Assembly: GCA_020510985.1 (NCBI GenBank)
Contig: CM035843.1
Span: 157,315,922 to 157,379,921 of the forward strand
Length of the DNA: 64,000 nt
Direction of reading: 5' to 3'
DNA from: Pholidichthys leucotaenia
Taxonomy: Eukaryota
Shown: one piece after another, positions 5,810 to 62,082 of the stretch
How the letters are laid out: each line of letters starts with the position of its first letter
How positions within the stretch are numbered: position 1 is the stretch's first letter
The notes under the pieces: model-generated
Seen by the model: only the letters and a program-made list of their open reading frames with translations
Databases searched by the model: none
Told to the model about the DNA's origin: nothing
Program-made: the position numbers and the translations under genes

Positions 5810-8280
5810 CGGTGCCACTCCAACACCCTCCCTCTCTTCTGTGACTCCGGCAGCACTTCTCTCCCTGGGGGGATGCTTATATACAACAGTCCCATCTGAT
5901 GCCCCCCGGTGACACCTCCTCTTTCGGTCCATTGTCTTCTCCTTCCCCCTGCCTTTCTGGGGGGAGGAAACCCCCATACCATGTCCCCACACAGCCTCCC
6001 GCCCCCCGAACACCCAGAAGGGGCGCTAACCCTTCCATCCTTTGGGCTTGAGCCGGCATCCATAGTGGCTGTAGCGAGGGGTTGCCGATCCAGTTGAACC
6101 ACCCTGCTGGTGAGGTGTACTGGAGGGCACTTCAGTCTGAAGAGGAAAAGAGGGAGGGGGGAAACGCATTATCTTCGCGAGCGCAGGTCCCTGCTGAGGG
6201 ATCGCCAACCTGCGGAGCCACCAACGGTGGCCGTCCGCACCAGGGAGCTTGGGCCAGCACCACCTGCTCGTCTGCCAATACAAAAGTGGGCTTCAGCCCG
6301 TCGATGCAGACGGTCTCCCTACGCCCCCCCCATGACCAACACAAAATGCTTCGCCCCAGGTTCCAACACCCTGAACGGTCCGTCGTACAGTGGCCACAGC
6401 AGGGTCCGGTGCGCATCGTGCCTGATGAAAACAAAACAGGCGCTCTGCAAGCTTTTTGGGACAAATGTGCGGGGGAAACAATGGTGGGCCGGGCCCGGTA
6501 CGCTCAAAACCTCTGTACTGTGTAAAAATTAAACAGGCGGCTCAGCCTCGGGCATGAGATTTTCCAGTAAAAACTCTCCGGGGATTCGCAGCGGCTGAGA
6601 AAAAAACGAGTTCTGCCAGGAAGGCTGCCAAATCCTACTTAGGTGCGGAGCACATCCCTAAAAGAACCCAGGGCAGGTGGTCGACCCAATTTGTGCCCAT
6701 GAGCGAAGCTCTGAGCGCTGCTTTAAGCGACCTATGAAAACGCTCACATAACCCGTTAGCCTGGGGGTTGTACACAGTAGTGTGGTGAATTTTGACCCCC
6801 AGGCTCTGTGGCATCGTGGACCAGAGTTCCGACACGAATTGTGGACCCCTGTCGGACATGATGTCCGATGGAGCTCCGAAACGTGTAACCCAAGCCAACA
6901 AAAAAGCACGCACTACTTCTGCGGACGTCATAGAAGCCAGCGGGACCACTTCAGGCCAGCGCGTGGTGCAGTCTAAGACTCAAAAGGTGCGTGAAACCTT
7001 GCAACGGTGGGTGGGGTCCCACCAAATCCACGTGGATGTGGTCGAACCTCCTAGCCGGGATTTGGAACGGCTTGAGGGGAGCTCTGGTGTGCTTGTGCAC
7101 TTTGGCCCGCTGGCACACGACGCAAGCTGCAGTCCACTCTTTCATGTCCCTGGGCAAATGCGGCCAGACGAATTTTGCCCCCACTAGCTTCACTGACACG
7201 CGCACTCCCAGATGCGAAAGAGAGTGGACCGACTTGAAAACGCGATGGCACCAAGAGCTCGGAACCACCGGACGCGGTTGGCCGGTGGAGACGTCACAGA
7301 GCAAGGGAGGGCACCCTTCTTGCACCACTCTGCTCTCCAGCCTTAACCCAGTTGGTGCAGACTGGAGCATGCAGATGTCCGCATCCCTGGCTTGATCCGC
7401 AGCCATGGTAAATGGCATTCACTTATATAGCGCTTTTATTCTCATCTCTAGATAACAAAAGCACTTCACAGATCCTGCTATCCACCCATTCACACACACA
7501 TTCATACACTGATGGTAGCATGCTGCCAAACATGGCGCTGTCCAAACCCACCAGGAGCAATTGGGGGTAAAGTGTCTTGCCCAGGGACACAATGGCACGA
7601 TATCTGGGGAGAGCGGGATTCGAACCGCCAACCATCCGGTTACTGGATGACCTACTCTACCTCCTGAGCCACTGCCGTCCCAACTGCCATTGCTGCCGGG
7701 CCAACCATGGTTCCAATACTTTGGATATGGCGTACGTCAGCGGCTTATGGTCTACGAACGCGGTGAACTCCAGCCAGCACTGGAAATGGCACGTCGCCAG
7801 GTGAAGAACCAGCAATTCTCTATCGAATGTGCTGTATTTGTGTTCATTGTTGCGCAAAGTCCTGCTGAAAAATGCGAGCAGCTGCCACAAACCTGAGATG
7901 CACTGCTTCACCACTGCCCCTAGGGCAACATCCAACACGTCGGAAGTGAGTGATATCCATGCAGATGGATCCGGGTGGGCTAGCAACGCAGCGTCCGCCA
8001 GCGCTGTTTTGGCATTCGTAAAAGCCTGGTCTCACTCGAGAGTCCAGTCAATGTTTTCCTCAGGCTTCTTTTTTTTAAGTGCAGCGTACAACGGCTGCAT
8101 CAGCTGGGCTGCCCGGGGAAGGAAACGGTTGTAAAAATTAACCATTCCCAAAAACTCCTGTAGTGCCCTTACAGTCTGTGGATGCGGAAAATCCAATACC
8201 GCGCCCACCTTGTCCAGTAACGGGATCGCGCCCTCTGGCGAAATGCAGTGGCCCAAAAAGTCAATCACTGGCACACCGAA
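5810..8280 (-). mobile_element. Ty3/Gypsy-like LTR retrotransposon, copy A: pol fragment (RT C-terminus, RNase H, integrase), 5'-truncated
   Basis: ORFs on the - strand: 8032..8274 is the RT C-terminus ([27 protein letters not shown]); 7657..7986 is RNase H; 6951..7418 is the integrase HHCC region (CVVCQRAKVHKHTRAP, FDHIHVDLVGP); 6635..6949 is the integrase DDE core (SDRGPQF, HHTTVYNPQANGLCERFH); 6319..6507 is the integrase C-terminus (FVFIRHDAHR, LYDGPFRVL). It is ~80% aa identical to copy B at 45860..52108. Confidence 0.8.
7411..7663 (-). mobile_element. tRNA-derived SINE inserted in the RNase H-integrase linker of Gypsy copy A
   Basis: The reverse complement shows a tRNA-like head (ggcagtggctcaggaggtagag, ggttcgaatcccgc), a central conserved block and a tail ending aaagcgctatataagtgaatgcc. 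It interrupts the pol reading frame between the QQWQL and MAADQARDAD segments. Confidence 0.7.
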
Positions 8281-8556
8281 CTGGCACTTGGCCGGGTTAC
8301 TCTCCTCCTTTTATTAGATCTACGTCTGTTTAACCTTTTACCATAACGAATTTAGAATTTGCTTCAAATGTTCTCATCCCCTCGTTTGTTAATGTTAAGT
8401 TTGGTCATGTAGGAGATTTCTGGGCATCAATGTGCACACCCTTTTGTTCTGTGCTTACCCAGTTAAGAGACAATGTGTATGTTTCCAATTTAGGAGAATA
8501 TTCTATGTTGAGGTCAGGTGTTGGTTTTCCATAGATGGCTACATTCCCCAGCAGAG

Positions 8557-11500
8557 TGTGATGGATGGCCCTCACAAGCCATCAATAAGACGCTATATAT
8601 CGACCGGTGAGTTTGCACAGTTTATTAAAGGAAAAGAAAGATGACAAAATAACGAGCCATGGGGGGCTAAAACATACTATAACTAACACAGGCTATGACG
8701 AGGAAACGGATCACAATAGAATAATACACTTACAATAAAGGACGAGGACGAAAGATGACGTCTGACCAGGAAGCTCGGCGAGGGATACTTGACGATGTCA
8801 GACGAGGACTAGTTTGACGGAGACTGCAGCAACGTTTCGCCCTCAGCTGCCCTCCTAAATAGGGCTCAGGCTGGAACAGCTGATGAGGTGATTGTTAATG
8901 CAGCTCAGCTGTCAGAGCCTCAGCTCTGACAGCCGGAAGCCCCTCCGAGCGCTGTTGCAATAAAAGCTCGGAGAGCCATAGGGAACACACACACACACAC
9001 ACACACCAGATGGGAGGAAAATACTGCACGGCCCCAGCGCGGACGAAATCGGTGCTCAAACCACGATAGTACCTCCCCCCGAGGCAGAGAAGTCCGGGCT
9101 CCGTATGACACCAAAGCCCCCCCCCCCCCCAGGGTGGAAGGATGGGGGAAAGGCCTGGAGGGTGAGAACCAGAAAGGACAAAAAAAAAACCCACCAAGAC
9201 AATGACACGGGGAAACACAGGGAACGAACAAAGCAATTACAGAGTATGGTAGGGAAAAAAAACCAGTCCTCCATAAAGCATGGATGATACATACTGTAGA
9301 CAGGACAAAAATGCAAATAACAGAAGGAGGCCTATAACTAAAATACACAGGCCCATGAGACACAATGGGGCAGATACGAATCATCCCTCCGACAAGGGAG
9401 GGGAGAAAAAAAAAAGACACGCTAAACAGCGGTGAATACATAGATCAAAATGGAACAAATGACAACACACTAGAGCGACCTTAATATTTATAGAAATAAG
9501 AAACACACGGGGATGACGGCAGGCAGAGTTCAATGAGAGGAAAAACAAGTTCAGGCAGTCTGCCTGCATCCAATGTCCAGATAACCAATAGGGGGAAAAG
9601 GGAGTGTTTGGCGGCCTACCCGAATCCCAGGCCCGGAAAAACAGGATCTCTGGCGGCTGGACCAGGTCGCCAAGCAGACAGTCCAGTTGGTCGGGTGGCC
9701 GACCCAGAACGCCAAACGGGCGAGGCAGTCCTTCAGGCGGCCGACCCGCATCGCTCAGCCACCAGGACCGCAGGGGAGAGAACGACAATGGCTTCCCCGT
9801 AGAGGGGGATAGTGAGGGAGAGCTGGGCCGAATATGAGGAACCCCAACGGCACCCGGTGGAGAAGGCTTGGAGGAAGGATGAGGGAACAGTCCGGCGTCA
9901 CTCAGCGGAGGATCTGCAGCTCCACCTCCGAACGTTACTAGAATAGGCACTGTCCTCCTGTTGGACACAGGGTGAGCCCGCGCTGCACCCATGATGGACC
10001 CCGACTGGGTCGCGGCTGCACCCACATTGGACCCCAACTGAGTTGGAACAGCTCCATGGACGACCTCCAACCCCAAACCCAGAACCTCCAACACAGCGAC
10101 CGGGGTTGACTCCGCACCGATGACCCTGGGAGAAGGCTCAGGAGAAGAAAAAGAACTGGGATCAGGATCACCGGTAGTGACAGAGCCCAGCGAGACGAGT
10201 TCGGATGCAGTGGGCGGCTGCCCCTGGCTTGTCTCCCCAAGAGACAGGCAAAAATGCTCTAGAACAGATAGTAGGAAGGAAAAATAGAGCACTTGCCTGC
10301 ACTAGAGTTCTGTCACTGTCCAGGACTTTGACGATCCGGGTTCCAAAGGCAGAAGGACGTCTTCTGGCTCCCACTTGGCTACGGCGGGCCCCACAGCCGG
10401 CATGGTGTTCTCCACAGTCTGAGGACCCTCCAACAATGACGTCCACACCGACGACCCACACGGCGTGGTGGCAGGGGATCCTCGACCTGCTGGATTGAAC
10501 CGCTCATCGATGGAGACCCGGGGACGTTTCGTCGTCGGCGCAGGCTCCACACTGCAGTCCGCTCTCCTCCTTTGCCCGTGACATGGCTGCGGGGCTGGAA
10601 CCAGGCTCTCCAGGACCGCAGGCCCGACGTAGGTCTGGCGTCGCGGAACGCTCAACGGAGGGAGACACAGAGGCAGCAGGTTCAATGTTAGATGCTACAG
10701 CAGGTGGAGGAAGCTCGGGGGGTTGTGAACCCCGAACTCCACCCCCAGGAATCAAGCAAGGCAATTCACGCAATGGGGAAACAGAATGAAAAGACACTTG
10801 CCTGATCCGTAGGGGCCTGATAGAACCCGCTGCAGTGGACTTTGTTCCTCCCTTTCCCCGCTGGTTGGTGACGGAGGGCCCCCTGGGAGGACGAGGAGGA
10901 GCCGCTCGCGATGGTCCAATAAAGGGCTTCGCCGGAGTAGGACTCGTGGCACTCACAGCAGCCGGGGAAGACATCGAGGAGGAGGGGACGACAGCCGAGG
11001 CGATCCGGGCACGAGGAGCTGACGGGACAGCAGGGAAAAATGACCCTGGGGGAGAGGCTGCAGGAATTCCCTCCTGACGAAACGCCGAAGAGGCAGCTGA
11101 CTGGGAGGTAGAGTTCTTCCAACGACCTGGAACAGGATCCGGACGGGGTTCTCGCTGAGTCTTAGTGTTGGCTGTGTGACGATGGTTACCGGCAGAGGGC
11201 TAGGTAAAGAAGAGGTTCGGGAAACGCCGCTCCTGCGCGGAAATGGAGGCGAGCAGCTCGGCGTACTCTGGATAATCACTTAGCTCAGGATTCCTCTCCA
11301 CCAGCCTGACTGCCACCATCACATACTTAATAATCTGCGTGGGGTGGACGGCGGAGTGAGCAGCAGCCACTCGGTCCCAGATGGAAGCAGCTGACAGCTG
11401 TAACTTCTCCGGGGGAATCCCGACTGATGTCACACTCCTTGGGGAATCACCCCTGGGCGGTGCGAACTCCTGGACTGGAATGGGGACAGGAACGGGATCC

Positions 11501-12401
11501 CAAAGCGAGGAGCGAGGGTGCCTACTCTTCGGCTTCCTGCCGGAGTTTCCCTCCAGTCCACGGAGTCTCTCCCGGTGTGCAGAGGTGTCTGCCTTCCTCG
11601 CAATGACTTCAGGGTGGTTGGAGTAGCGAGGAAGGCAATTAATGATGTCCTCAGCGAGGTCCAGGTGCCGGTGTACATCGCTGGGAGTGTCATAGAGGCC
11701 AGCAGTGAAGAGAGTTCCATCAACGAAGTCCAGGGCCTCCGCCAGCTCGTAGCCCAGGCTCCGAACGCGGCCCCTGAATGACGACATGACCTCCCAGCAC
11801 ACAGGTACCCAGACAAGGAAAAACAAGTCCAATTCAGGCAAAACTAACGGCAACCGGCGTCTCAGTCTGGCTGCAGTCTACTGTCATGGACGGCCCTCAC
11901 GAGCCATCAATAAGATGCTATATATCGACCGGTGAGTTTGTACAGTTTATTAAAGGAAAAGAAAGATGACAAAATAACGAGCCATGGGGGGCTAAAACAC
12001 ACTATAACTAACACAGGCTATGACAAGGAGGAAACAGATTACAGAGGAATACACTTACAATAAAGGATGAGGATGAAAGGTAGATGACGTCTGACCAGGA
12101 AGCTCGGCGAGGGATACTCAACGATGTCAGATGAGGAATAGTTTGACGGAGTCTGACGGAGACTGCAGCAACGTTTCGCCCTCAGCTGCCCTCCTAAATA
12201 GGGCTCAGGCTGGAACAGCTGATGAGTCGATTGTTAATGCAGCTCAGCTGTCAGAGCCTCAGCTCTGACAGCCGGAAACCCCTCCGAGCGCTGTCACAAT
12301 AAAAGCTCGGAGAGCCATAGGGAACACACACACACACACCAGATGGGAGGAAAATACTGCATGGCCCCAGCGCGGATGAAATCGGCGCTTGAACCACGAC
12401 A
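8557..12401 (-). mobile_element. LTR-flanked insertion (~3.85 kb): ~510-bp direct LTRs, 5-bp TSD CAGAG, 2.8-kb GC-rich internal region with no recognisable pol; candidate non-autonomous LTR retrotransposon (LARD-like)
   Basis: LTR copies 8557..9066 and 11882..12401 both start tgtSatggaYggccctcac and end gaaccacga. CAGAG lies at 8552..8556 and at 12402..12406. The purine tract ggggggagg abuts the LTR at 9067..9085 on the - strand, suggesting - orientation. The internal ORFs on the - strand (11200..11853, 217 aa, and others) are Pro/Ser-rich with no RT, integrase or protease motifs. Confidence 0.6.
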
Positions 12402-12671
12402 CAGAGGTGACAAAATGTCCAACATTTTCCAATCCATGTGTTTGGGTCTAACCAGCAGGATGTGTGGAACCCCCCATAGGTCGAAATGTCTCTTATCCTC
12501 TTCAACTAGGACAATGGATGCTTCCACACATTTCTTTGTTTACCAGTCCATGTTTTATGAGCAATCTGGAGGAGGGATTTGCAAATAATGGTTGTTCATA
12601 ATTTGGATCAGATCCGTTCAATTGCCTGTAGCACATGGGATACAATGCTACTTTTACAGATGTTGATGGGT

Positions 12672-13027
12672 ATTCTACTGCACGGTGGCGCAGTGGTTAG
12701 CACTGCGGCAGCACAGTTTACCCTTGGCCGGGGGATTGTGGGGATCGTGGGATCATGGGTTTGATCCCAGCCCCCGACCAACAGTGATCTGTGTGGAGTT
12801 TGCATGTTCTCCCCGTGTTGCGTGGGTTTACTCCGGGATTTCTCCGGTTTCCTCCCACATGCCAAAAACATGCATGTTAGGTTAATTGGCTGTTCTAAAT
12901 TGTCCCTAGATATCTGTTTCCTATAGGCCCTTAGAATAGAGGGTTAGCATTAATGAAAGCGCTTTGAGTGGTCCTTGTGACTAGAAAAGCGCTATATAAG
13001 TGCAGGTTAGTTAGTTAGTTAGTTAGT
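12672..13027 (+). mobile_element. tRNA-derived SINE (widespread teleost family with a conserved ggagtttgcatgttctccccgtg core), followed by a (TTAG)n tail
   Basis: tRNA-like head ggtggcgcagtggttagcactg and gggtttgatcccag; core ctgtgtggagtttgcatgttctccccgtgttgcgtgggttt and ctccggtttcctcccacatgccaaaaacatgc. Sister copies sit at 13866..14251(-) and 34255..34576(+). Confidence 0.8.
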
Positions 13028-13865
13028 TTGCCATTTGCAGATTGTAACTATTACCTTTTCTGACCTTGAAAAGTCATGTATGTCATTACCCGGAGTTACT
13101 ACTTTACATGCACCTGCACCATACGGATTTACTCGGAGTACCTTGAACCTCAGAGTCAGGTAAATGGAAGATGTCTGCTATTTTCTAATAATTTAATTTT
13201 TGCTAATTTTCTATATATGTGTAGAAGTGAGTCCATTTATCTGTTTTAGTCTTAAGCATGCAGTCCAGTTTTTCCGTAGTGGGTGTGGATCATGGGTGCC
13301 TCCCCTCCCAGCGGCCGGTCTCGCCATCACTGTTTCCATTGTGGGTGCGTTGGCCCCTCCTGCTCCACTGCGTCCTCCCCCTCCTCCTTTTGGCTTCCTT
13401 TTATAAAAGACTTTTACTGTTGTTGCGGAGGGAGGAGGGGGTTGCTAGGCGATGGCGTGGAGGGGGAGGGTGGACGGAGCCAATTCCAGCAGGCTTGAAG
13501 AGGGACTCACACAGTCGCTGGGGGAGGGAGGTCATCCAAAGCCACAACCATCATCTCAGATTAATAGAGAAACAGACAAGCTGTTTGATTATTTTGCGTT
13601 TGTTCTCATTGCTGCAGCATGAGTCTCTTACGTTAAAAACTTCTTACGTTTTTTCTTTCCTTCTTCCAATTGTTTCTCCATATTTTCTCTTGTGTCCTGC
13701 ACCAAACTTAGCAATTCATCAACTTTCAATTTTCCTCTAAAACCAAACTTCCCTTTCCATTTTCTGCCCACTCTCACTTCTACAGTGCTCATCTCCACAA
13801 CTCTTATTTATTTATTCATTTTTATTTTATTTTATTTATTCATTTATTTCCATCCATTTTCTTCC

Positions 13866-14251
13866 GCTTAATCCTTTTCGGGTCACGGGGGAGGGGGGGG
13901 GGGCTTGAGCGTATCCCAGCATCTTTGGGCGGGAGGCAGGGTACACCCTGGACAGATCACCAGTCCATCGCAGGGCCAACACAGAGAGACAGACAACCAT
14001 TCACTCTCACATTCATACCTAAGGACAATGTAGAATCCCCAGTTTAATGCCAATTAACCTAACTTGCATGTTTTTGGCATGTGGGAGGAAACCAGAGAAA
14101 TCCCGGAGTAAACCCACGCAGACACAGGGATAACATGCAAACTCCACACAGATCACTGTTGGTCGGGGGCTGGGATTGAACCCAGGATCCCCCAGCCAAG
14201 GGTGAGTTGCTGTGCTGCCGCAGTGCTAACCACTCCGCCACCGCGCTGCCC
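13866..14251 (-). mobile_element. Full-length copy of the same SINE family
   Basis: The reverse complement matches 12672.. and extends through gccctgcgatggactggtgatctgtccagggtgtaccctgcctcccgcccaaagatgctgggata. Confidence 0.8.
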
Positions 14252-24075: not shown

Positions 24076-24554
24076 TATTGTGTTTTTATGCACTTTTGAT
24101 GTGCCTTTGTCATGTGCCAATTGCACATTTAAAACCAAGAGAATGAATAAAAAGTGTGTATTTTTCATCATACTGATCTGTGTTGGTTTGAAATTTATCA
24201 TATTCAACAGATCGCTGAACATGTGCGGCCCAGATACATGTCTTAATTTCAAATTGTGGCTCAGCTGATTTTGTAATTGGATAGCCCTGCTGTAATAGTT
24301 GCAATGAGGAAGATAATTGGCCAGAGGATCTGGTATTGACCAGCGGACTGAAGAGGAAGAAGAGGGTCCAATAGCAACACAGGCAACAAAGCAGTGTGGA
24401 AGAGGCAAATTGAAAGGTAAAGAGAAGAGAAGAAAGACACATACAGCTGCTGAATTTGATCAAAGTGTTGACCTGACGAGCGCAGAAAAAGAGGGTCCAA
24501 CAGCAACGCAGGCCAAACTGAGAAAGTTTCAGGTCTCAGTTGGCTCTTGCCTGA

Positions 24555-26164
24555 TACAGTGGGGCCCAAAAGTATTTAGTCAGCCACCAATTGTGCAAGT
24601 TTTCCCACTTAAAAGATGAGAGAGGTCTCCAATTTTCATCATAGGTATACCTCAACTATGAGAGACAAAATGAGAAAAAAAAAATCCAGAAAATCACATT
24701 GAAGGATTTTTAATGAATTAATTGGTAAATTCCTTGGTAAAATAAGTATTTGGTCACCTACAAACAAGCAAGATTTCTGGCTCTCACAGACCTGTAACTT
24801 CTTCTTTAAGAGGCTCCTCTGTCCTCCACTCATTACCTGTATTAATGGCACCTGTTTGAACTCATTATCAGTATAAAAGGCACCTGTCCACAACCTCAAA
24901 CAGTCAGACTCCAAACTCCACTATGGCCAAGACCAAAGAGCTGTCAAAGGACACCAGAAACAAAATTGTAGACCTGCACCAGGCTGGGAAGACTGAATCT
25001 GCAATAGGTAAGCAGCTTGATGTGAAGAAATCAACTGTGGGAGCAATTATTAGAAAATGGAAGACATACAAGACCACCGATAAGCTCCCTCGATCTGGGG
25101 CTCTATGCAAGATCTCACCCCGTGAGGTCAAAATTATCACAAGAACGGTGAGCAAAAATCCCAGAACCACACGGGGGGGCCTAGTGAATGATCTGCAGAG
25201 AGCTGGGACCAAAGTAACAAAGGTTACATCAGTAACACACTACGCCGCCAGGGACTCAAATCCTGCAGTGCCAGACGTGTCCCCCTGCTTAAGCCAGTAC
25301 ATGTCCAGGCCCGTCTGAAGTTTGCTAGAGAGCATTTGGATGATCCAGAAGAGGATTGGGAGAATGTCACATGGTCAGATGAAACCAAAATAGAACTTTT
25401 TGGTAAAAACTCAACTTGTCGTGTTTGGAGGAGAAAGAATGCTGAGTTGCATCCAAAGAACACCATACCTACTGTGAAGCATGGGGGTGGAAACATCATG
25501 CTTTGGGGCTGTTTTTCTGCAAAGGGACCAGGACGACTGATCCGTGTAAAGGAAAGAATGAATGGGGCCACGTATCGTGAGATTTTGAGTGAAAACCTCC
25601 TTCCATCAGCAAGGGCATTGAAGATGAAACGTGGCTGGGTCTTTCAGCATGACAATGATCCCAAACACACTGCCCGGGCAATGAAGGAGTGGCTTTGTAA
25701 GACGCATTTCAAGGTCCTGGAGTGGCCTAGCCAGTCTCCAGATCTCAACCCCATAGAAAATCTTTGGAGGGAGTTGAAAGTCCATGTTACCCAGCGACAG
25801 CCGCAAAACATCACTGCTCTAGAGGAGATCTGCATGGAGGAATGGGCCAAAATACCAGCAACAGTGTGTGAAAACCTTGTGAAGACTTACAGAAAATATT
25901 TGACCTCTGTCATTGCCAACAAAGGGTATGTAACAAAGTATTGAGATGAACTTTTGTTATTGACCAAATACTTACTTTACTGAGGAATTTACCAATTAAT
26001 TCATTAAAAATCCTTCAATGTGATTTTCTGGATTTTTTTTTCTCATTTTGTCTCTCATAGTTGAGGTATACTTATGATAAAAATTGGAGACCTCTCTCAT
26101 CTTTTAAGTGGGAGAACTTGCACAATTGGTGGCTGACTAAATACTTTTTTTTATCCCACTGTAA
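24555..26164 (+). mobile_element. Tc1-family DNA transposon no. 2 (1.6 kb, ~200-bp TIRs) with a frameshifted transposase
   Basis: The TIR tacagtggggcccaaaagtatttagtcagccaccaattgtgcaagtt is inverted at 26100..26164. Transposase ORFs 24923..25318 and 25336..25944 carry the HTH region, [17 protein letters not shown] and [12 protein letters not shown] 1-nt frameshift near 25210 separates the HTH and DDE parts. Confidence 0.85.
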
Positions 26165-37255: not shown

Positions 37256-38856
37256 TACAGTGGGGCAAAAAAGTATTTAGTCAGCCACCAATTGTGCAAG
37301 TTCTCCACTTAAAAGATGAGAGAGGTCTCCAATTTTCATCATAGGTATACCTCAACTATGAGAGACAAAATGAGAAAAAAAATCCAGAAAATCACATTGA
37401 AGGATTTTTAAAGAATTTGTTTGCAAATTATGGTGGAAAATAAGTATTTGGGCAATAACAAAAGTTCATCTCAATACTTTGCTATATACCCTTTGTTGGC
37501 AATGACAGAGGTCAAATGTTTTCCATAAATCTTCACAAGGTTTTCACACACTGTTGCTGGTATTTTGGCCCATTCCTCCATGCAGATCTCCTCTAGAGCA
37601 GTGATGTTTTGGGGCTGTCGCTGGGCAACACAGACTTTCAACTCCCTCCAAGGATTTTCTATGGGGTTGAGATCTGGAGACTGGCTAGGCCACTCCAGGA
37701 CCTTGAAATGCTTCTTACAAAGCCACTCCTTCGTTGCCCGGGCGGTGTGTTTGGGATCATTGTCATGCTGAAAGACCCAGCCACGTTTCATCTTCAATGC
37801 CCTTGCTGATGGAAGGAGGTTTTCACTCAAAATCTCACGATACATGGCCCCATTCATTCTTTCCTTTACACGGATCAGTTGTCCTGGTCCCTTTGCAGAA
37901 AAACAGCCCCAAAGCATGATGTTTCCACCCCCATGCTTCACAGTAGGTATGGTGTTCTTTGGATGCAACTCAGCATTCTTTCTCCTCCAAACACGACAAG
38001 TTGAGTTTTTACCAAAAAGTTCTATTTTGGTTTCATCTGACCATGTGACATTCTCCCAATCCTCTTCTCGATCATCCAAATGCTCTCAAACTTCAGACGG
38101 GCCTGGACATGTACTGGCCTAAGCAGGGGGACACGTCTGGCACTGCAGGATTTGTGTCCCTGGCGGCGTAGTGTGTTACTGATGTAACCTTTGTTACTTT
38201 GGTCCCAGCTCTCTGCAGGTCATTCACTAGGTCCCACCGTGTGGTTCTGGGATTTTTGCTCACCGTTCTCGTGATTATTTTGACCTCACGGGGTGAGATC
38301 TTGCGTGGAGCCCCAGATCGAGGGAGATTATCAGTGGTCTTGTATGTCTTCCATTTTCTAATAATTGCTCCCACAGCTGATTTCTTCACACCAAGCTGCT
38401 TACCTATTGCAGATTCAGTCTTTCCAGCCTGGTGCAGGTCTACAATTTTGTTTCTGGTGTCCTTTGACAGCTCTTTGGTCTTGGCCATAGTGGAGTTTGG
38501 AGTCTTGACTGTTTGAGGTTGTGGACAGGTGTCTTTTATACTGATAACGAGTTCAAACAGGTGCCATTAATACAGGTAATGAGTGGAGGACAGAGGAGCC
38601 TCTTAAAGAAGAAGTTACAGGCCTGTGAGAGCCAGAAATCTTGATTGTTTGTAGGCGACCAAATACTTATTTTCCACCATAATTTGCAAATAAATTCTTT
38701 AAAAATCAGACAATGTGATTTTCTGGATTTTTTTTTCTCATTTTGTCTCTCATAGTTGAGGTATACCTATGATGAAAATTGGAGACCTCTCTCATCTTTT
38801 AAGTGGGAGAACTTGCACAATTGGTGGCTGACTAAATACTTTTTTGCCCCACTGTA
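37256..38856 (-). mobile_element. Tc1-family DNA transposon no. 3, same subfamily as no. 2, inserted into the CACTA-like transposase coding region
   Basis: TIR tacagtggggcaaaaaagtatttagtcagccaccaattgtgcaag at 37256.., inverted at 38810..38856. Transposase ORFs 38093..38488(-) and 37471..38079(-) are near-identical to those of element no. 2 and share the same frameshift. Confidence 0.85.
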
Positions 38857-40089
38857 TGTGACATTGTAGGTGACTTTCTATTGGCTTAAGCTCTTTTAAG
38901 AACACATGCTTTGAGGTTAACTGTGTGTTTTCTGGACAGTGAATATTGATCAAATCTAGGAGATCTGAGAGAGCCATGCCTGTGAGTCCGTGTCTCAAAA
39001 CAAATGAAAGTATAAGTAAAAAACTCTGAGCTTGGGTTAGTCGTGAACCAGTGTAAAGTGTCTCTTCGTTTTCCAGTTCATGACCGACTTTTCCAAAATG
39101 TGATTCCTCATTTACTGACTCATCAGGGCTATCTTCAAATAAAAGGGAAGATTCTTCTTCACTTCCAATAATGGATCCAAGACTGTCATCCAAGTCATTA
39201 TGAATATAGTTACTGGTATTTGGTGACACGTGGCTGCAATTAGGTTCATCATTGAATGGAGGTTCACTTTCTGTGGAACATTCATCCTCAAACAAGAGTG
39301 GGGAAGTAAGACATCTGGGAACAGAATCGCTGCAGTCAACATGCAGGCTCTATATATGGAGAAAAGAAAAAAAATTCTGGTTAGAGAAATGTTGTTTGAT
39401 TCACTTACTTACTGTCACTTTAGTTCTTCAGTACCTTCAGTGAATTAGTCAAAAGTTTAACTACACACAATCCAGTAGAGCCAGTGACAATAAACTGAAA
39501 CACTTTATACCAATTTCACTTTACTGTCACAGTTGCTGCTCTACCCCTTTGCTGATCTGGAGAGAGCAGTAAACACTAATGCTTCCTCTGACAATTGCCA
39601 ACCACTACTTTTAAACTGACAGGATGTAGCTTCACCAGCATGCTCCGTCCTGACTGACGGTGCAGTGACCTGGACTGAGCATTCATCCTAGCTTCCAACC
39701 TGCAGACAGCTACAAATATGTTCCACACAGTTGAAACTTACACAGACTTTGGCTCTTTCTGATAAACTTTGTTGTCCACTGAGAGGAGAATATGGTTCAG
39801 AATCGTAATCAACCTAAAAAAAACACATTAGAAAATAAAAACCCATAGAAAGTTTACAAACCAACCTGCATGTTACAACATGCAAACTACAGAAACTATA
39901 CACACTTTACAAAATGTACGCTATAGAGGTTATGCACATGTCGTCATGAGCACGACAACAGTGTTGCATCCTTAGCAATAGAAGCTAAACTGAGTGGATT
40001 GCAAAATCAACGCATTTCTGTTCAGTAGACTCGAGTTGTGACTTTCTTTCTTTTCCTCGCAAAACATTCTCAAATGGTGAAGCTCTGTC

Positions 40090-45829: not shown

Positions 45830-45928
45830 GTAAGTATTTGCACAGAGCGCAACCCCAATAAAACCCATGGCAGCCTGTCTACCCAATTTGCATCTGTCAA
45901 TGAAGCCCTGAGTGCTGCTTTCAGTGAT

Positions 45929-46336
45929 CTATGAAAACGCTTGCATAACCCATAGTCCCGACGGGACTCCAAAATGCGCCACCCATGCTGTTAAAAAAGT
46001 GCGCGCTACATCCACGGACGCGGTTGCCGCCAGCGGGACCGCTTCTGGCCAGCGCGTGGTGCAGTCCACCATTGTCAGGAGGTGCGTCCACCCCTGTGAT
46101 GGCAGGAGGGGGCCCACGAGGTCCACGTGAACATGGTCGAACCTCTTAGCCGGAATACGAAACGGCTCCAAGGGAGCCTTCGTGTGTCTGTGTACCTTGG
46201 CTCGTTGGCACACCACGCAGGCTGCAGCCCACTCTTTCACTTGTTTGCGTAGGCTCGGCCACACAAATTTTTCTCCCACCATTTTGACCGACGCGCGCAC
46301 TCCTGGGTGCGCCAGAGTGTGAACCGACTCAAACAC
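45929..46336 (-). CDS. Gypsy copy B integrase HHCC finger plus the start of the DDE core
   Basis: HPGVRASVKMVGEKFVWPSLRKQVKEWAAACVVCQRAKVHRHTKAP and FDHVHVDLVGPLLPSQGWTHLLTMVDCTTRWPEAVPL. Confidence 0.8.
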   Translation of the reverse strand: MFESVHTLAHPGVRASVKMVGEKFVWPSLRKQVKEWAAACVVCQRAKVHRHTKAPLEPFRIPAKRFDHVHVDLVGPLLPSQGWTHLLTMVDCTTRWPEAVPLAATASVDVARTFLTAWVAHFGVPSGLWVMQAFS

Positions 46337-46546
46337 GCGGCCGGGACCACCGGACGCGGGCGACCCATGGAGACATCACAGATTGGGGGGGGGGGGGCTC
46401 CATCCTGCAGCACCCTGCTCTCCAGCCTTAACCCTGTTGGTCCAGACTGGAGCGCGCGCACGTCTGCATCGCTAATCTGCTCCGCGGCCATGGCTGCGTA
46501 ATCTATCCCCACGCAGACTGGGGCCACCAAGGCATGCGAGAGGCAG

Positions 46547-49500
46547 TCAGAATCAGAATCAGAATCAGAATCAGAATCAGAATCAGGTTTATTGCCATTG
46601 TTCATGTAGTACACAAACTAGGAATTTGTCTCGGTACAATGCTGCAACATTAAACATGATAAGATAAGAGAAATAAACTATACATGTAATAAAGTGTAGG
46701 ATAAGATTAAGTGATACTGGTCAACAGTTAAAATATATATTAGCCAGCAGCAGATACTGTGGAGAACCATATAGTGCAGTCGGTAATGCAGGAAGAAAAC
46801 AGTGATGATTGACATGAGTCTGGTTGAGCTGCTGTACATGGTGCACGAGAGTCAATAAGTCACTTAGTGTTCAGCAGTCTAATGGCAGAGGGGAAGAAGC
46901 TGTTCATGTGACGGGAGGTTTTAGTCTGGATGGACCGAAGTCTTCTACCAGAGGGGAGGGGGGCAAACAGTACGTGACCAGGGTGTGAGGGATCGGCTAT
47001 GATCCGGCCAGCACGCCTCCGGGTCCTGGAGATGTACAGATCCTGGAGAGATGGGAGCTTGCAGCCGATCACCTTCTCAGCAGTGCGCACGACGCGCTGC
47101 AGCCTTAGTCTGTCTCTGGCAGTGGCTCCTGCGTACCACACGGTTATGGAGGTGGTGAGGATGGACTCGATGATGGCTGTGTAGAACTGCACTAACATCT
47201 TGGTGGGTAGCTTGAGCTTCCTCAGCTGCCGCAGGAAGAACATCCTCTGCTGGGCTTTTTTGATGAGTGAGCTGATGGTCAGCTCCCATTTGAGGTCCCT
47301 GGTGATGGTAGTGCCTAGGAAGCGGAAGGAATCAGCAGTGGTGATGGGAGAGCCTGAGAGGGTGAGGGGGGGCAGAGGAGTAGTGACTTTCCTGAAGTCT
47401 ACAATCATCTCCACTGTCTTCAGAGCGTTCAGCTGCAGGTTGTTATTGCTGCACCAGGACGCCAGCTGGGCCACCTCTCTCCTGTAGGCGGACTCGTCGC
47501 CGTTGGAGATGAGCCCGATGAGGGTGGTGTCGTCCGCAAACTTGATCAACTTGACAGACTGGTGGCTGGAGGTGCAGGAGTTGGTGTAAAGGGAGAAGAG
47601 TAGGGGGGAAAGTACACAGCGCTGGGGTGATCCGGTGCTGATGCTAGTATAGTCTGAGACAGTCTTTCCCAGCCGCACATGCTGCCTCCGGTCCGTCAGG
47701 AAGTCGATGATCCACCTGCAGAGGGAGTCAGGCACGTTGAGCAGGGACAGCTTGTCCCGGAGCAGAGCGGGGCGGATGGTGTTGAATGCGGAGCTGAAGT
47801 CCACAAACAGGATCCTGGCGTAGGTTCCCGGGGAGTCCAGGTGCTGCAGGATGGAGTGGAGGGCCAGGTTGACTGCATCGTCTACAGACCTTTTGGCTCG
47901 GTAGGCAAACTGCAGCGGGTCCAAGAGAGGGGTGGTGATGGACTTGAGGTGGGACAGGACCAGGCGCTCAAAGGACTTCATGACTACAGAGGTGAGTGCT
48001 ACAGGTCTGTAGTCATTAAGTCCAGTGATCCGTGGCTTCTTGGGGACAGGGATGATGGTGGAGGATTTGAGGCAGGACGGCACGTGGCATAACTTAAGGG
48101 AGGTGTTAAAAATGTCTGTGAATACAGGAGCCAGCTGTTTTGCACAGAGTCTCAGGGTGGAGGGAGACACGCCGTCTGGGCCGGGGGCCTTGCGCGGGTT
48201 CAGTCTGGAGAACTGTTTGAGCACATCCTGCTCACTGATGATAAGGGGAGGGGGGGAGGAGGGGGGGGTGCCTTAAATGAAGTAGGGAATGTGGAGGCTG
48301 TGGAGCTGGAGGGAGGGGGGAAGTTGGACACAGATGACGAGGTGTCAAAACGGGCATAGTGTTGGGACAGTCTTTGACAAAGGGCTTTGTCATCCTGACC
48401 TTTAGGAGCCTTAGGTCGATAGTTGGTGATTTGCCTCAGTCCTCTCCACACAGACATATATCCACAAAAGTGGATATATGAGTTCACAGTGTCCGTGTAC
48501 TCATCCAGATCATGCATGGCTCCTTTAAGCATGCCCCAGTCAGATATTTCCATGCACGTTTCCAGCTTCTCCTCAGCATCACTGGTCCGTATCTTCGTAG
48601 TGCTCACAACAGGTTTAGTGAGCTTCAATCTCTGTCTGTATGTGGGAATGAGGTGAACCATCACGTGATCAGATAATCCCAGCGCAGCTCGAGGGACAGC
48701 GCGATATGCGTCTTTCACTGTGGTGTAACAGTGATCCAGTGTGTTTAATCCTCTGGTGGGGCATTTAATAAACTGTTTGTAGCGGGGGAGATCGTGGCTC
48801 AGATTGCACTGATTAAAGTCGCCAGCCACAATAATCAGCGAGTCTGGAAAACTCCGCTCTGTGTGTTGAATGTGATCCGCGAGCACGCGCTGAGCTTCGC
48901 GCGTGTCCGCGTCGGGAGGGGCGTACACAGCGATCATTATGAAAGAAGCAAACTCCCGCGGGGAATAGAAGGGCTTGCAATTGATAACAAGAAATTCCAA
49001 GGCAGGAGAACAGTGTTTGGAAATTACCATTACATCAGAGCACCAGCTGCAGTTGATGTAGAAGCAGACACCGCCTCCTGTGGTCTTGCCGGAAAGCTCT
49101 GTGTCACGATCAGCACGGAAGAGCTGAAAGCTGTCGAGGCGCAGCGCGCTGTCCGGTATATTTTCCCGGAGCCAGGTCTCAGTAAAGCAGAGGACAGCTG
49201 AGGAGGCGAGGTCCTTAAAACGCATCAGCAGTCTCAGTTCATCTACCTTGTTAGAGAGAGAGTTGGTATTGGACAGAAATATGCCAGGCAGCGCCGTTCG
49301 CGAGCCTGTCCTGCGAAGTCGTACGAGAGCGCCCGCTCATCTTCCTCTCTTCCGCCGTCTCACTTTCCGAGCCAAACAATAAACCAGATCGGCGGCAGGG
49401 GCTAGAAAAACTGGGAGGAGGTCCGTGGGGGTGAAAGTCCTGATATTTAGAAGTTCTTCACGGGTATAAGTGCAAGCAGACACACAATTGACAAACAAAA

Positions 49501-49550
49501 ACAAACAAAGAGCGCAGCGAAGCACCATGTCGACCGCTGTGGGCGCCATC
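46547..49550 (-). mobile_element. L2-type LINE (~3.0 kb: ORF2 endonuclease plus RT, (TGATTC)n 3' tail) nested inside the Gypsy copy B integrase/RNase H region
   Basis: (gaatca)n at 46547..46586 forms the 3' tail. RT ORF 46860..48224(-) carries [33 protein letters not shown] and ends [10 protein letters not shown]-endonuclease ORF 48200..49225(-) carries CFTETWL and IVAGDFNQ. The ORF2 N-terminus 49337..49549 carries TREELLNIR and RKRGR. There is a frameshift near 48210. Confidence 0.85.
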
Positions 49551-50399
49551 TTGGATGCTTTCCAAGATGTAGTCCGCCACTACATTCAGTTTACCAGACA
49601 CATGCTGAATATCAGTAGTAAACTCTGAGATCGCGGCCAGCTGTCTCTGCTGCCGGCCCGACCACGGTTCTGAAACCTTGGCCATCGCGAATGTTAGTGG
49701 CTTGTGGTCCACGAACGTGGTGAAGCTGCGCCCTTCCAGCCAGAACTGGAAGTGGCATATGGCCAGGTGAAGGGCCAGCAACTCTCTGCCGAATGCGTTG
49801 TATTTACGTTCGCTGTCGCGCAAAGTTCTGCTGAAAAAAGGGAGCGGCTGCCAAGCCCCGGCGACGCGCTGCTCCACGACAGCCCCTATGGCCATGTCTG
49901 AAGCGTCGGTGGTGAGCGCTATGCGGGCCGTCGGGTCTGGATGCGTCACCAGTGCGGCGTTTGACAGGGCTGCTTTAACTTCCGAGAACGCCCGCTCTCG
50001 CTCCGGGGTCCATTCGACCCTATCCGCGGGTTTCTGCTTCTTGAGCGCGGCGTATAATGGTTGCATGAGCTGCGCCGTGCAGGGAAAGAAATGGTTATAA
50101 AAGTTCACCATTCCCAAAAATTCCTGCAGCGCGCTGACGGTCTGAGGCCAGGGAAAATCCGCCACGGTGCCCACCTTGTCGGGCAGCGGGATCGCTCCTT
50201 CGGGAGAGATGCGGTGCCCCAAAAAATCAATCTCCGTCATGCCGAACTGGCATTTCGCCGGGTTGATTATTAACCCGTGCTCCTTCAACCTCCGGAAAAC
50301 CGTCCTGAGGTGGGTTTCGTGTTCGTCTTCGGACGCACTGGCTACCAGGATATCGTCCACGTAGACGAACACAAACGGGGAGATCGCGCAGCACTGCAT
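49458..50399 (-). CDS. Gypsy copy B RT C-terminus plus RNase H ORF
   Basis: [11 protein letters not shown] (the YxDD box), [13 protein letters not shown], and the RNase H segment [17 protein letters not shown]. The last ~30 codons read through into the L2 5' end. Confidence 0.8.
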
Positions 50400-50503
50400 C
50401 CATCATGCGCTGGAACGTCTGTGCCGCTCCTTTTAACCCGAATGGCATGCGCAGGAACTCGAATAGACCGAATGGAGTTATTACCGCTGTTTTGGGTATG
50501 TCC

Positions 50504-52084
50504 TCAGCGCGCACTGGGACTTGGTGGTAACCGCGGACCAGGTCTATTTTGGGAAAAAATGCGCTCTCCGGCGAGGTGAACGGAAAAATCCTGTATGTGG
50601 GGAATTGGGTAGTGGTCGTGCGCTGTGGCGTTGTTCAACCTGTGGAAATCCCTGCACGGTTGCCACGATCCCTCAGCCTTAGGGACCATGTCTAGCGGGG
50701 AAGCCCATGGGCTGTTCGAGCGCCTGATGATGCCCAACCTTTCCAGGTTGGCGAACTCCTCGCGCGCTATGGCCAGTTTAGCTGCGTCCAGGCGCCGAGG
50801 TCTTGCAAAAACGGGCGGCCCGGTGGTGGTGATAAAGTGCTCCACCCCGTGTTTAACGATGCCCGCGGAAAACATCGGGACCGTGAGTGCTGGGAACTGA
50901 GTGAGCAGTGTGTGGAACTTACCGCCTGTAGCTGTGACGTTGGCTTGTGCTGTTGGTTGGGTCACTCGAGCTATACAGGGGAGAGAGTCAAAGGACAGTG
51001 CATTAACCAAACGCCTGTTAGCAACATCAACCAGTAAACCATGTGCACACAGAAAATCAGCCCCCAGTATGTGGTAATTCAGTGCTGCTACGACAAAAGT
51101 CCACTCATATGTACGGCCGTGTAGAGATAAGAGCAGAGTCCTCTCACTGGGGCCGCTAGATCCTGCCAGCTGGTCAGCGTAGGTCGGCCAGATGAAGCTC
51201 TTCTGGGCTCTGGTGTCCACGAGGAAACGCCTCTCAGAGCGTGCATCCGTTAAGCAGAGCAGCTTGTTCTCTTCACCGAGGGTCACAGCTGCTACCGACC
51301 CCCGGCCTTGGCGTTTTCCCGAGCGTTTGAATTGGCACGGTGGCGCACATCTGCATGCCTTCTCTCCGAAGCGGCGGTGGTAGAAACAGAGCGTGTCTCT
51401 CTGACGCTCCTTGGCCCCCGCTGCCGCTACCGTCGGTGGCTCCTCGCCTCCTCTGGTCGTCTCGCTGGGCTCTGCCGCTGCTGCGTTGACTGTGATCGCC
51501 CTGGTGGTGATGATGATCCGGTCTGCCTCCTGGGCTAGCGCACGGTAGTCGCGCGTGGCCAGCCACGGCGAATTGGCCAGAACCGCTCTCGCCACTGTTG
51601 GAAGGTTCCAGAGGAAGAGGTGGGCAAACAGAAAGTGCGCGTCGTCCGTGCCCATCAACGCCAGCATCTTCTTCATCAGGTCTATGGCTGAACCATCTCC
51701 TAACTCGGTCCGCGTCAGGAGCCTCTCTGCTCTCTCACATTCCGAGAGTGTGTAGCGCTGGATAAGTGCAGCCTTGAGTGCTTCATATTTGCTGCTGGCT
51801 GGTGGCTGATTGAGCAGGCTCACTACCTGCTGAGCTGTGCGGGCGTCGAGCGCTGCGACCACATGATAGAATCTGGTATCATCTACCATTACTCCCTGGA
51901 GGGTGAACTGGGCCTCGGTGAGGTGGAACCAAGAGCGTGGGTTGTGCTGCCAGAAATCCGGTAGCTTGACTGAAACCGCACACGCATGGCTGGGGGTTCC
52001 AGTCCTGGCTGTCTGTGGGATGGCTGCCGCCCCGCTGTAGCTTCCTGACCGGGCCGGCTCCAGGGATCTTGCCTCGTGTTCCAT
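50504..52084 (-). CDS. Gypsy copy B gag-protease-RT N-terminal ORF (526 aa)
   Basis: A gag-like region; a protease-like segment around [13 protein letters not shown]; RT motifs [27 protein letters not shown] and YPIPHIQDF. Confidence 0.75.
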
Positions 52085-52959: not shown

Positions 52960-55860
<2,901 letters not shown>

Positions 55861-62059: not shown

Positions 62060-62082
62060 AACCCTAAGTAAAGTGTTACTTT

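Follow-up and report, generated by a model that had tools for sequence, protein, structure and literature searches.

A probable self-primed, non-autonomous LTR retrotransposon with a decayed reading frame of its own, nested in a Ty3/gypsy copy of Pholidichthys leucotaenia

The window analyzed here, a stretch of 64,000 nucleotides from the genome of the fish Pholidichthys leucotaenia, contains a unit of 3.85 kb that is bounded by direct repeats and carries none of the usual retroelement enzymes. The question raised by this locus is what kind of mobile element it represents, the preliminary description having left the choice between a non-autonomous retroelement of the LARD type and a new class of element. 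Our analysis indicates that the unit is a single LTR-bounded insertion, now old and decayed, and that it is probably a non-autonomous LTR retrotransposon on the minus strand, self-primed and equipped with its own reading frame, which is nested in a Ty3/gypsy element.

The direct repeats, 8557-9068 (512 bp) and 11882-12401 (520 bp), align from end to end as an LTR pair, which upholds the two repeats of about 510 bp reported earlier while moving the end of the left one from 9066 to 9068. A total of 469 of the 506 aligned columns match, the differences comprising 28 transitions, 9 transversions and 3 indel events (p-distance 7.3%, K2P 7.8%; blastn identity with gaps counted, 90.1%). The indel events amount to 20 gap columns, and the runs of 4, 10 and 6 seen in one alignment include no multiple of 3. 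Similarity ends sharply, at TGT... on the left and at ...ACA/ATA on the right, with no alignment between the outer flanks. Homology is therefore confined within the repeats, which are not part of a longer segmental duplication, the very continuation of homology past the repeat ends against which the earlier proposal was to be judged being absent. Read on the minus strand, the 5' LTR has the termini TGTCGTGG...CCATGACA and the 3' LTR the termini TATCGTGG...CCATCACA, with one terminal substitution (TG -> TA); these are ends of the TG..CA type with 8-nt imperfect terminal inverted repeats.

Direct reading places the 5-mer CAGAG at 8552-8556 on the left and at 12402-12406 on the right, so that the target-site duplication (TSD) noticed previously is indeed present on either side of the element. 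The left flank (8298-8556) matches 52943-53201 at 85% and the right flank (12403-12647) matches 53198-53445 at 82%. When the flanks are joined with a single CAGAG, they are colinear with 53101-53300 without a gap across the junction, the paralog having the unoccupied target as a single GAGAG at 53197-53201; the empty site claimed for this paralog is thereby borne out. By paralogy, the host sequence (7691-8551, minus strand) is a Ty3/gypsy copy with an internal deletion: its part 7691-8298 has its paralog in the RT/RNase H region at 49648-50264, and the part 8298-8556 has its own in 52943-53201, upstream of the gag-pol ORF, in an element of the DUF7041-gag/RT/RNase H type. The insertion is nested in the upstream (LTR or leader) portion of this internally deleted copy. 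The surrounding fish genome is very rich in repeats.

The element is oriented on the minus strand, because a polypurine tract (PPT; GGGGGGAGGTAC, 9069-9080, read from the sequence) adjoins the left LTR on this strand only. This makes 11882-12401 the 5' LTR and 8557-9068 the 3' LTR, with the PPT directly upstream of the latter. On the minus strand of the 520-nt LTR, TATTTA is found at nt 202 and AATAAA at nt 451. The TATA-like box (TATTTAGG) accordingly occupies 12193-12200, with a counterpart at 8844-8851 in the other LTR, and the AATAAA polyadenylation signal near the LTR 3' end occupies 11946-11951, the other LTR likewise containing one. The predicted parts of the 5' LTR are U3 at 12401-12170, R from 12169 to about 11930, and U5 from about 11929 to 11882. 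A plus-strand orientation was considered and rejected: no purine tract precedes the right LTR, the corresponding positions (11860-11881) not being purine-rich; the TATA-like box and AATAAA would be badly placed; and the complement between LTR and post-LTR sequence reaches only 6 nt.

Immediately beyond the 5' LTR, the element has a candidate primer-binding site (PBS) of the self-priming type. The sequence AGACTGCAGC (11870-11879, minus strand) starts 2 nt past the LTR and, over positions +3 to +12, is a perfect 10-nt complement of 12169->12160, an LTR 10-mer whose start is 31 nt downstream of the TATA-like box. This 10-mer, the putative self-primer GCTGCAGTCT (12160-12169, minus strand), would constitute the first 10 nt of the transcript, and is found unchanged in the other LTR at 8811-8820. 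An operational definition of self-priming asks for complementarity of at least 10 bp beginning 0-5 bp downstream of the 5' LTR (PMC6317226), and the layout observed here lies within these published bounds. When post-LTR windows were shuffled, only 0.9% of them attained a 10-nt complement anywhere in the LTR. In folds of 12169->11860, MFE and centroid alike, nucleotides 1-11 pair with the PBS, the leader fold overall being no more stable than shuffles (z = -0.91); the primer duplex itself is only 10 bp long and includes the palindrome CTGCAG. Against a human tRNA set, distinct from that of the host, no complement to a tRNA 3' end was detected in either orientation; the best matches to this set are 7-8 nt, and those of at least 7 nt sit 9-59 nt from the tRNA 3' end. 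The trinucleotide TGG is absent within 40 nt of the LTR in both orientations, and tRNA and Rfam scans over the whole window returned no match. As a positive control for the tRNA scan, the neighboring LTR element at 60150-62060 yielded a clean 11-nt match to tRNA-Trp; this neighbor, with a length of 1.9 kb, is closer to the TRIM type. Thus, of the two signals that the preliminary description had named as worth locating, the PPT is found at 9080->9069 and a tRNA-type PBS is absent, its place being taken by the 10-nt complement of the self-primer. Given the predicted start site, the primer site appears to use the RNA of the element itself in place of a tRNA.

The internal region had been credited with a 217-aa ORF of no known family. 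This ORF is present (11200-11853, minus strand), with a TTG start under the bacterial code and a first ATG at 11787 that yields 195 aa. It is not an isolated frame, being the 5' part of a longer, decayed frame of about 730 codons (9591-11787, minus strand), which is delineated by tblastn with three related proteins, by alignment and by 3-base periodicity. The path of the long frame follows frame -2 from 11787 to about 10651 and then frame -3 to 9591; in the present copy it is disabled by two stop codons, a TAG in frame at 11200-11202 and another at 10302-10304, together with a frameshift near 10650. A segment of 75 codons (~11397-11175) is missing from the relatives. Three segments of the long frame show 3-base periodicity (p=4.5e-5, 7.9e-8 and 0.0019), and the LTRs and 9069-9590 give p=0.4-0.7. 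The T-rich 3' region of the internal domain (9081-9590, minus strand), which includes a G13 run, is apparently non-coding, with no 3-base periodicity (chi2 4.7, p=0.58) and a strong AT skew in the composition profile. Codon position 2 of the long frame has an extreme composition, with 51% C. The length of the ORF is unexceptional, at least 217 codons being reached in 15% of dinucleotide shuffles of this pyrimidine-rich strand.

The protein predicted from the long frame has a helical N-terminus followed by a very basic Pro/Ser/Ala-rich stretch and a conserved RRRxDC-x9-KRPR motif, which looks like a bipartite nuclear-localization signal. A single-sequence AlphaFold2 model of the 195-aa ORF was poor (pLDDT 45). 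Pfam searches at E<=1 gave no match in the six longest minus-strand ORFs or in the six frames of 9069-11881, the same method having recovered RT, RNase H and DUF7041 in neighboring elements. A profile search of PDB was equally negative. Consistent with the earlier reading that reverse transcriptase, integrase and protease are lacking, no RT, integrase, protease or Gag domain was found across the six internal frames. Two further interpretations of the ORF were set aside. A low-stringency self-comparison of the internal region revealed no significant internal repeats, so the idea that one half of the 217-aa ORF duplicates the other was dropped. Two CAGGCAAGTG motifs were considered as splice donors of introns retained in an antisense captured gene, a reading that we put aside since the relatives translate both of them in frame ('RQV').

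The sole relatives of the long frame are three "uncharacterized proteins" of P. leucotaenia itself (P0001, P0002 and P0003), the gene models concerned being KAM9306260.1, KAM9306928.1 and KZ484_007907. The absence of a known family accordingly holds for Pfam and PDB and gives way to these three unannotated proteins. They run colinear with 11712->9535, with an amino-acid identity of 45-64%, none of the three has a pol domain, and Pfam finds nothing in them. In tblastn, P0003 follows the element in one frame over 409 aa with all gaps in-frame; positives scarcely exceed identities (56% vs 50%), which is the pattern of neutral DNA divergence. When 1.84 billion protein representatives were searched exhaustively with HMMER, the 217-aa ORF recovered P0001 and P0002 only, and hence no cellular homolog of this part in other organisms, and a word-indexed profile search with residues 1-492 against 5.8 billion proteins also found no cellular homolog elsewhere. 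The same 217-aa ORF drew no match in a word-indexed search for homologs, and no record matched in an exact look-up of the ORFs of the window. Look-ups of the DNA behind P0001-P0003 likewise came back empty, and a second DNA copy sharing the termini of the element was not retrieved. Among metagenome and viral contigs, a 26-mer palindrome of the LTR was absent and the protein profile had no match. Taken from the alignments, the three proteins most likely represent further members of this repeat family in translated form, and the frame was probably translated while that family was active; its product may have stood in for Gag or served as an accessory protein.

Several alternative explanations have to be weighed against this interpretation. 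That no mobile element is involved, the unit being a local tandem or segmental duplication with similar 5-mers at its edges by chance, has nothing in its favor except the presence of two direct repeats. With homology ending exactly at TG../..CA, a 5-bp duplication that fits the gap-free empty site of the paralog, and the PPT, TATA-like box and AATAAA all canonically placed, its probability is negligible, and the exact homology ends together with the empty-site alignment rule it out. A different kind of objection accepts the insertion and sees in it a one-off, either an autonomous element reduced by internal deletion or an LTR element carrying a transduced fragment of a host gene. The lack of pol and an ORF without retroelement signature would be expected on this account, and the motif resembling a nuclear-localization signal would suit a cellular protein. 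However, the internal architecture recurs in at least three further copies, all of them devoid of pol domains, and the searches of 1.84 billion representatives (217-aa part) and 5.8 billion proteins (residues 1-492) furnish no cellular homolog elsewhere, so that a one-off origin strikes us as very improbable. As part of the explanation that we consider probable, the element instead belongs to a family.

A more serious challenge is that the element might be a true LARD, with a 2.8-kb interior that is conserved and non-coding, the ORFs and the three 'proteins' being artefacts of a stop-poor, pyrimidine-rich strand. Such a reading can draw on an ORF length that is not significant relative to shuffles, the lack of Pfam and PDB matches, the Pro/Ser-rich, low-complexity sequence, the pLDDT of 45, and the slight excess of positives over identities that agrees with neutral divergence. 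Yet significant 3-base periodicity occurs only in the homology-supported frames and in neither the LTRs nor the 3' region, the single-frame colinearity over 409 aa tolerates in-frame gaps only as against LTR indels that are never a multiple of 3, and the 51% C at codon position 2 is not explicable by the avoidance of stop codons; we consider a non-coding interior unlikely, albeit deserving of attention. The primer site invites comparable caution. The 10-nt complementarity between LTR and PBS could have arisen by chance, priming having been achieved by other means, such as a diverged or internal tRNA fragment, or the PBS having decayed. The duplex is a short one with a 6-nt palindrome in it, 10 nt somewhere in the LTR are attained by about 1% of shuffles, the tRNAs used for comparison were human ones and not those of the host, and a tRNA-type PBS could have mutated because the element is old (7% LTR divergence). 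What speaks against coincidence is its position, since a start at +3 behind the LTR and at -31 relative to the TATA-like box would require two independent accidents of placement, along with the missing TGG and tRNA matches that are short and displaced from the tRNA 3' end. A fortuitous complement is, in our estimate, a minority possibility.

The preferred interpretation, a self-primed, non-autonomous LTR retrotransposon with a reading frame, does not amount to a new class of element, because TG..CA ends, a 5-bp TSD, a PPT, the U3-R-U5 layout and a self-priming PBS of known type are all present. The features by which LTR retrotransposons are recognized (TG..CA LTRs, a 4-6 bp TSD, a PPT before the 3' LTR and a PBS after the 5' LTR) are found, and the coding capacity for gag and pol (PR, RT, RNase H, IN) is lacking. 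An LTR-bounded unit with a 5-bp TSD, an empty site and no RT, IN or PR is therefore non-autonomous and LARD-like in the broad sense, and to this extent the first half of the original alternative stands. The strict label is doubtful: LARDs have by definition a long, non-coding internal domain, were described from plants and possess much larger LTRs, and here codon periodicity and a frame kept relative to the relatives extend over about 2.2 kb. LARDs and other non-autonomous LTR elements are reportedly treated by Kalendar and colleagues in 2004 and in the Wicker classification. The present element shares with LARDs two LTRs, a PBS and a PPT, the absence of reverse transcriptase, integrase and protease, a family-conserved interior and the requirement for mobilization in trans, but differs in its codon periodicity and frame conservation over that length, in LTRs of about 0.5 kb and in its teleost-like fish host. 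TR-GAG-type elements, said to have been described from plants by Chaparro and colleagues in 2015, are reportedly non-autonomous LTR elements that retain a single ORF at the gag position. One long ORF soon after the PBS, at the gag position, and the absence of pol are common to both, whereas the ORF examined here has no similarity to Gag, capsid or zinc-knuckle families in Pfam and PDB. TRIMs are likewise non-autonomous and LTR-bounded with a 5-bp TSD, but they stay below about 1 kb, lack an ORF and have LTRs of 100-250 bp, in contrast to 3.85 kb and 0.5-kb LTRs in the present case.

The closest parallel for the cis signals is the Tf1/sushi group of Ty3/gypsy. In Tf1 the primer duplex measures 11 nt, as against 10 nt in the present element. 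Shared with this group are a PBS that would pair with the predicted 5' end of the RNA of the element itself and not with a tRNA, located within a few nt of U5, and TG..CA ends with a 5-bp TSD that suit a Ty3/gypsy integrase; the group occurs in vertebrates including fishes. The present element differs in having no gag-pol, and the likeness is one of predicted cis signals. Tf1, Tf2 and Tj1 of fission yeasts and sushi-ichi of pufferfish are placed in this group (as cited in PMC4600332 and PMC6317226), and self-priming is documented in Tf1 and implicated from fungi through vertebrates (PMC4600332).

These features are compatible with the following scenario. Transcription by RNA polymerase II would begin in the 5' LTR at GCUGCAGUCU, some 31 nt beyond TATTTAGG, and the transcript would be polyadenylated after the AAUAAA of the 3' LTR. 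Its first 10 nt would fold back on the complementary AGACUGCAGC, 2 nt past U5, and act as a Tf1/sushi-type self-primer of minus-strand DNA synthesis, the plus strand being primed by the PPT. For RT/RNase H and integrase the element would have depended on an autonomous Ty3/gypsy helper acting in trans, most plausibly a self-priming one of the Tf1/sushi kind, whose integrase would make the 5-bp staggered cut; the LTR divergence of about 7% has accrued since insertion. Going further, the frame of about 730 codons might encode an undescribed retroelement protein that replaces the canonical Gag in a self-primed, pol-less LTR family restricted to the Pholidichthys lineage and adapted to parasitizing sushi-type Ty3/gypsy elements, a proposal that we offer as speculative.

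For the annotation of this genome, the gene models KAM9306260.1, KAM9306928.1 and KZ484_007907 most probably represent a non-autonomous LTR retrotransposon in translated copies and not host genes, and the cleanly documented nested insertion with its empty site could seed a consensus for a repeat library of this repeat-rich fish genome. The self-priming layout of a pol-less element is also useful, if in a small way, as an example: a non-autonomous LTR element has to retain the cis signals of its helper, so the layout points to a helper of the Tf1/sushi type. If the long frame was truly translated, its product would be an unclassified addition to the short list of non-Gag proteins in LTR elements.

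The two direct repeats bounding the 3.85-kb insertion, which a repeat finder and pairwise alignment place at 8557-9068 and 11882-12401, the left one ending 2 bp later than in the preliminary description, are its LTRs. Counting gaps, blastn gives an identity of 90.1% across 527 columns; 469 of the 506 aligned columns match, the remainder being 28 transitions and 9 transversions alongside 3 indel events (p-distance 7.3%, K2P 7.8%). In the pairwise alignment the similarity starts exactly at TGT and stops exactly at ACA/ATA, with no alignment between the flanks on either side; the longer segmental duplication that the preliminary description named as a refutation is thus not seen. The expected CAGAG lies directly outside the LTRs at both ends (8552-8556 and 12402-12406). 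The flanks are themselves repeats, with 8298-8556 matching 52943-53201 and 12403-12647 matching 53198-53445. Fused around one CAGAG, the two flanks align gap-free across the junction with 53101-53300, the paralog reading GAGAG at 53197-53201, which bears out the empty site claimed earlier. The filled site and its empty paralog form a textbook pair, and every structural feature tested for membership in the LTR order is found in the element. The LTR divergence of 5-8% marks the insertion as old, consistent with the disabling mutations in its reading frame described below. At neutral rates for teleosts of a few 1e-9 per site and year, this divergence would correspond to an age of roughly 5-15 million years.

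The window is repeat-dense vertebrate DNA of teleost type. Alongside several Tc1-like transposases and ORFs for LINE RT/endonuclease, it contains a Ty3/gypsy element (49458-52084) that has RT, RNase H and a DUF7041-type gag; neither tRNA genes nor Rfam families were found in a scan of the 64 kb. The closest relative of the 526-aa gag-pol ORF of the gypsy element is from Pholidichthys leucotaenia itself (77% identity), with other fishes reaching at most 54%. The LTR-flanked element landed in the upstream part of another copy of this gypsy element, one with an internal deletion. There, 7691-8298 has its paralog in the RT/RNase H region of the gypsy element and 8298-8556 in a stretch some 0.9 kb upstream of the gypsy gag; the LTR-flanked element is therefore a nested insertion. 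The two copies of this DUF7041-gag gypsy element (45845-53445 versus 6648-8556 plus 12403-12647) have diverged to 73-85% identity. The right-hand copy retains the intact gag-pol ORF (50504-52084) and is interrupted at 46860-49225 by a LINE and at 53625-55233 by a Tc1 element, and the left-hand copy lacks the 2.7 kb corresponding to 50265-52942. At 12680-14246, a tRNA-like SINE head (GCACGGTGGCGCAGTGGTTAG) precedes 143-bp inverted repeats of 94% identity (12749-12890 and 14049-14191), and this unit may be a foldback or MITE-like element. Two Tc1-like copies in inverted orientation (24554-26163 and 37256-38857; 95% identity) each carry terminal inverted repeats of about 200 bp. Within another Tc1-like transposon, on the plus strand at 60150-62060, sits a second non-autonomous LTR element of about 1.9 kb, younger and shorter than the one at 8557-12401, with 479-bp LTRs of 97% identity, a probable target-site duplication ACCCT, TGGTGACCCCG complementing the tRNA-Trp 3' end, and GGGGGGGCGGGGG ahead of the 3' LTR.

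The cis signals orient the element on the minus strand. Directly upstream of the left LTR is the polypurine tract GGGGGGAGGTAC (9080->9069, minus strand); read in the plus orientation, the matching position shows no purine enrichment. The minus strand also carries a TATA-like box, TATTTAGG (12200->12193; LTR position 202), and AATAAA (11951->11946; position 451 of 520), both conserved in the second LTR. These signals point to an ordinary layout, with a predicted U3 of ~232 nt, R of ~240 nt and U5 of ~48 nt. The putative U3 of both LTRs contains a 26-nt palindrome, GCTGTCAGAGCCTCAGCTCTGACAGC (8908-8933 and 12247-12272), with several CAGCTG motifs around it. Possibly an enhancer or factor-binding module, the palindrome is absent from the metagenome and viral contigs searched.

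Of the two priming signals whose search the preliminary description had proposed, the polypurine tract is present but a tRNA-type primer-binding site is not. No TGG-initiated tRNA complement follows the LTR in either orientation, and in a comparison with a set of 23 vertebrate tRNAs no match exceeds 7-8 nt, those of at least 7 nt lying 9-59 nt away from the 3' end of the tRNA. As positive control, the small element at 60150-62060 matched the tRNA-Trp 3' end over 11 nt, starting 1 nt past its LTR. An alternative is self-primed reverse transcription, which was first demonstrated for Tf1 and has been implicated from fungi to vertebrates among LTR retrotransposons (PMC4600332). An operational rule for it asks for a complementary stretch of 10 bp or more that starts 0-5 bp past the 5' LTR (Neumann et al. 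2019, PMC6317226). The element conforms to this rule: AGACTGCAGC (11879->11870), 2 nt past the 5' LTR, is a perfect 10-nt complement of GCTGCAGTCT within the LTR (12169->12160). Counted from the first T of TATTTAGG, the latter starts 31 nt downstream, where the transcription start would be expected. Only 0.9% of shuffled post-LTR windows yield a 10-nt complement anywhere in the LTR, even without a positional requirement, and the plus-orientation control yields 6 nt. In both the MFE and centroid folds of the predicted leader (12169->11860), nucleotides 1-11 pair with the AGACTGCAGC site; the stability of the whole leader fold is not unusual (z = -0.91). Taken together, self-priming is probably the likeliest priming mechanism of this element.

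The absence of RT, integrase and protease reported in the preliminary description holds: neither the long ORFs nor the six frames of 9069-11881 match Pfam at E<=1. In neighbouring elements an identical search readily picked up domains of RT, RNase H, gag and transposase, and the LTR-flanked element is therefore non-autonomous. The internal 217-aa ORF (11200-11853, minus strand), described as of no known family, returned nothing in a word-indexed homolog search. Exhaustive phmmer against 1.84 billion representatives recovered two relatives (E = 4e-11 and 1e-7), both "uncharacterized proteins" of P. leucotaenia, and a third, again from this fish, came out of a profile search. These three (P0001-P0003) have neither a Pfam domain nor a PDB relative; the ORF has kin, but no family in Pfam or PDB. 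Mapped onto the window, the three proteins jointly run colinear with the minus strand between ~11712 and ~9535, P0001 and P0002 following frame -2 down to ~10650 and frame -3 thereafter, and P0003 continuing in frame -3 to 9591 with one HSP of 409 aa at 50% identity. The 217-aa ORF therefore forms the 5' part of a ~730-codon frame (11787->9591), which in this copy is interrupted by TAG stops at 11200-11202 and 10302-10304 and by a frameshift near 10650. The element copy has an extra 75-codon segment (~11397-11175) missing from its relatives. The GenBank entries of the latter (KAM9306260.1, KAM9306928.1 and KZ484_007907) appear to be conceptual translations of element-family copies rather than host genes; several other P. 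leucotaenia gene models, such as 'gal3st1b isoform 1' and 'C11orf54 homolog isoform 2', contain gypsy gag/RT domains. Scans of metagenome and viral contigs for element sequences were negative.

Whether this frame was translated draws evidence in both directions. Against translation, 15% of dinucleotide shuffles of the pyrimidine-rich strand yield ORFs this long, positives hardly exceed identities in the tblastn alignments to the relatives, the predicted protein is 14% Pro and 12% Ser, and its single-sequence AF2 model is poor (pLDDT 45), with helices only at residues 4-83 and 126-188. On the other side, codon-position composition is strongly non-uniform in four homology-supported segments (p = 4.5e-5, 7.9e-8, 0.041 and 0.0019), C occupying 51% of second codon positions in one of them, and neither LTR nor 9069-9590 has three-base periodicity (p = 0.4-0.7). 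The P0003 alignment keeps a single frame across 1.1 kb with in-frame gaps only; the three LTR indel events, a neutral comparison, comprise 20 gap columns in runs of 4, 10 and 6 nt. We therefore moderately favor the view that the family encoded a protein when active. Its product would begin with a neutral helical head, continue with a middle part that is very basic (pI 11.9) and consists to 60% of Pro/Ser/Ala/Gly/Thr, and end in an acidic tail; it has neither a zinc knuckle nor a capsid signature. The best-conserved block (window ~10590-10520, minus strand) contains RRRxDC-x9-KRPR, invariant in 4/4 sequences, which resembles a bipartite nuclear-localisation signal. A 5' splice-site-like sequence (AG|GCAAGT), CAGGCAAGTG, occurs twice on the sense strand (10290-10299 and 10795-10804, minus-strand reading), each copy followed by a T-rich stretch and translating as 'RQV', conserved in the P. 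leucotaenia relatives; the two motifs may act as donors in the splicing of a subgenomic RNA, or may just be codons under conservation.

The observation in the preliminary description is thus confirmed, and its interpretation as a LARD-type or new class of element is supported in part. The element resembles LARDs in being a non-autonomous LTR element without pol, but a LARD in the strict sense has a non-coding interior, and on that point the evidence is divided: the ORF length and the lack of known domains speak for a non-coding interior, codon-position periodicity and frame conservation for past coding. As in TR-GAGs, a single ORF remains where gag would sit, although its product cannot be recognised as Gag. 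Its priming signal recalls the Tf1/sushi group of Ty3/gypsy elements from yeast and vertebrates, of which self-primers are typical (Neumann et al. 2019, PMC6317226), but membership in that clade is judged on pol, which the element lacks. All structural features tested for the LTR order are in place, and nothing requires a new class. Several copies share the identical pol-less architecture, and they therefore represent a family rather than a one-off deletion derivative; judged by its sequence, the element is a non-autonomous LTR retrotransposon that would have been mobilised in trans.
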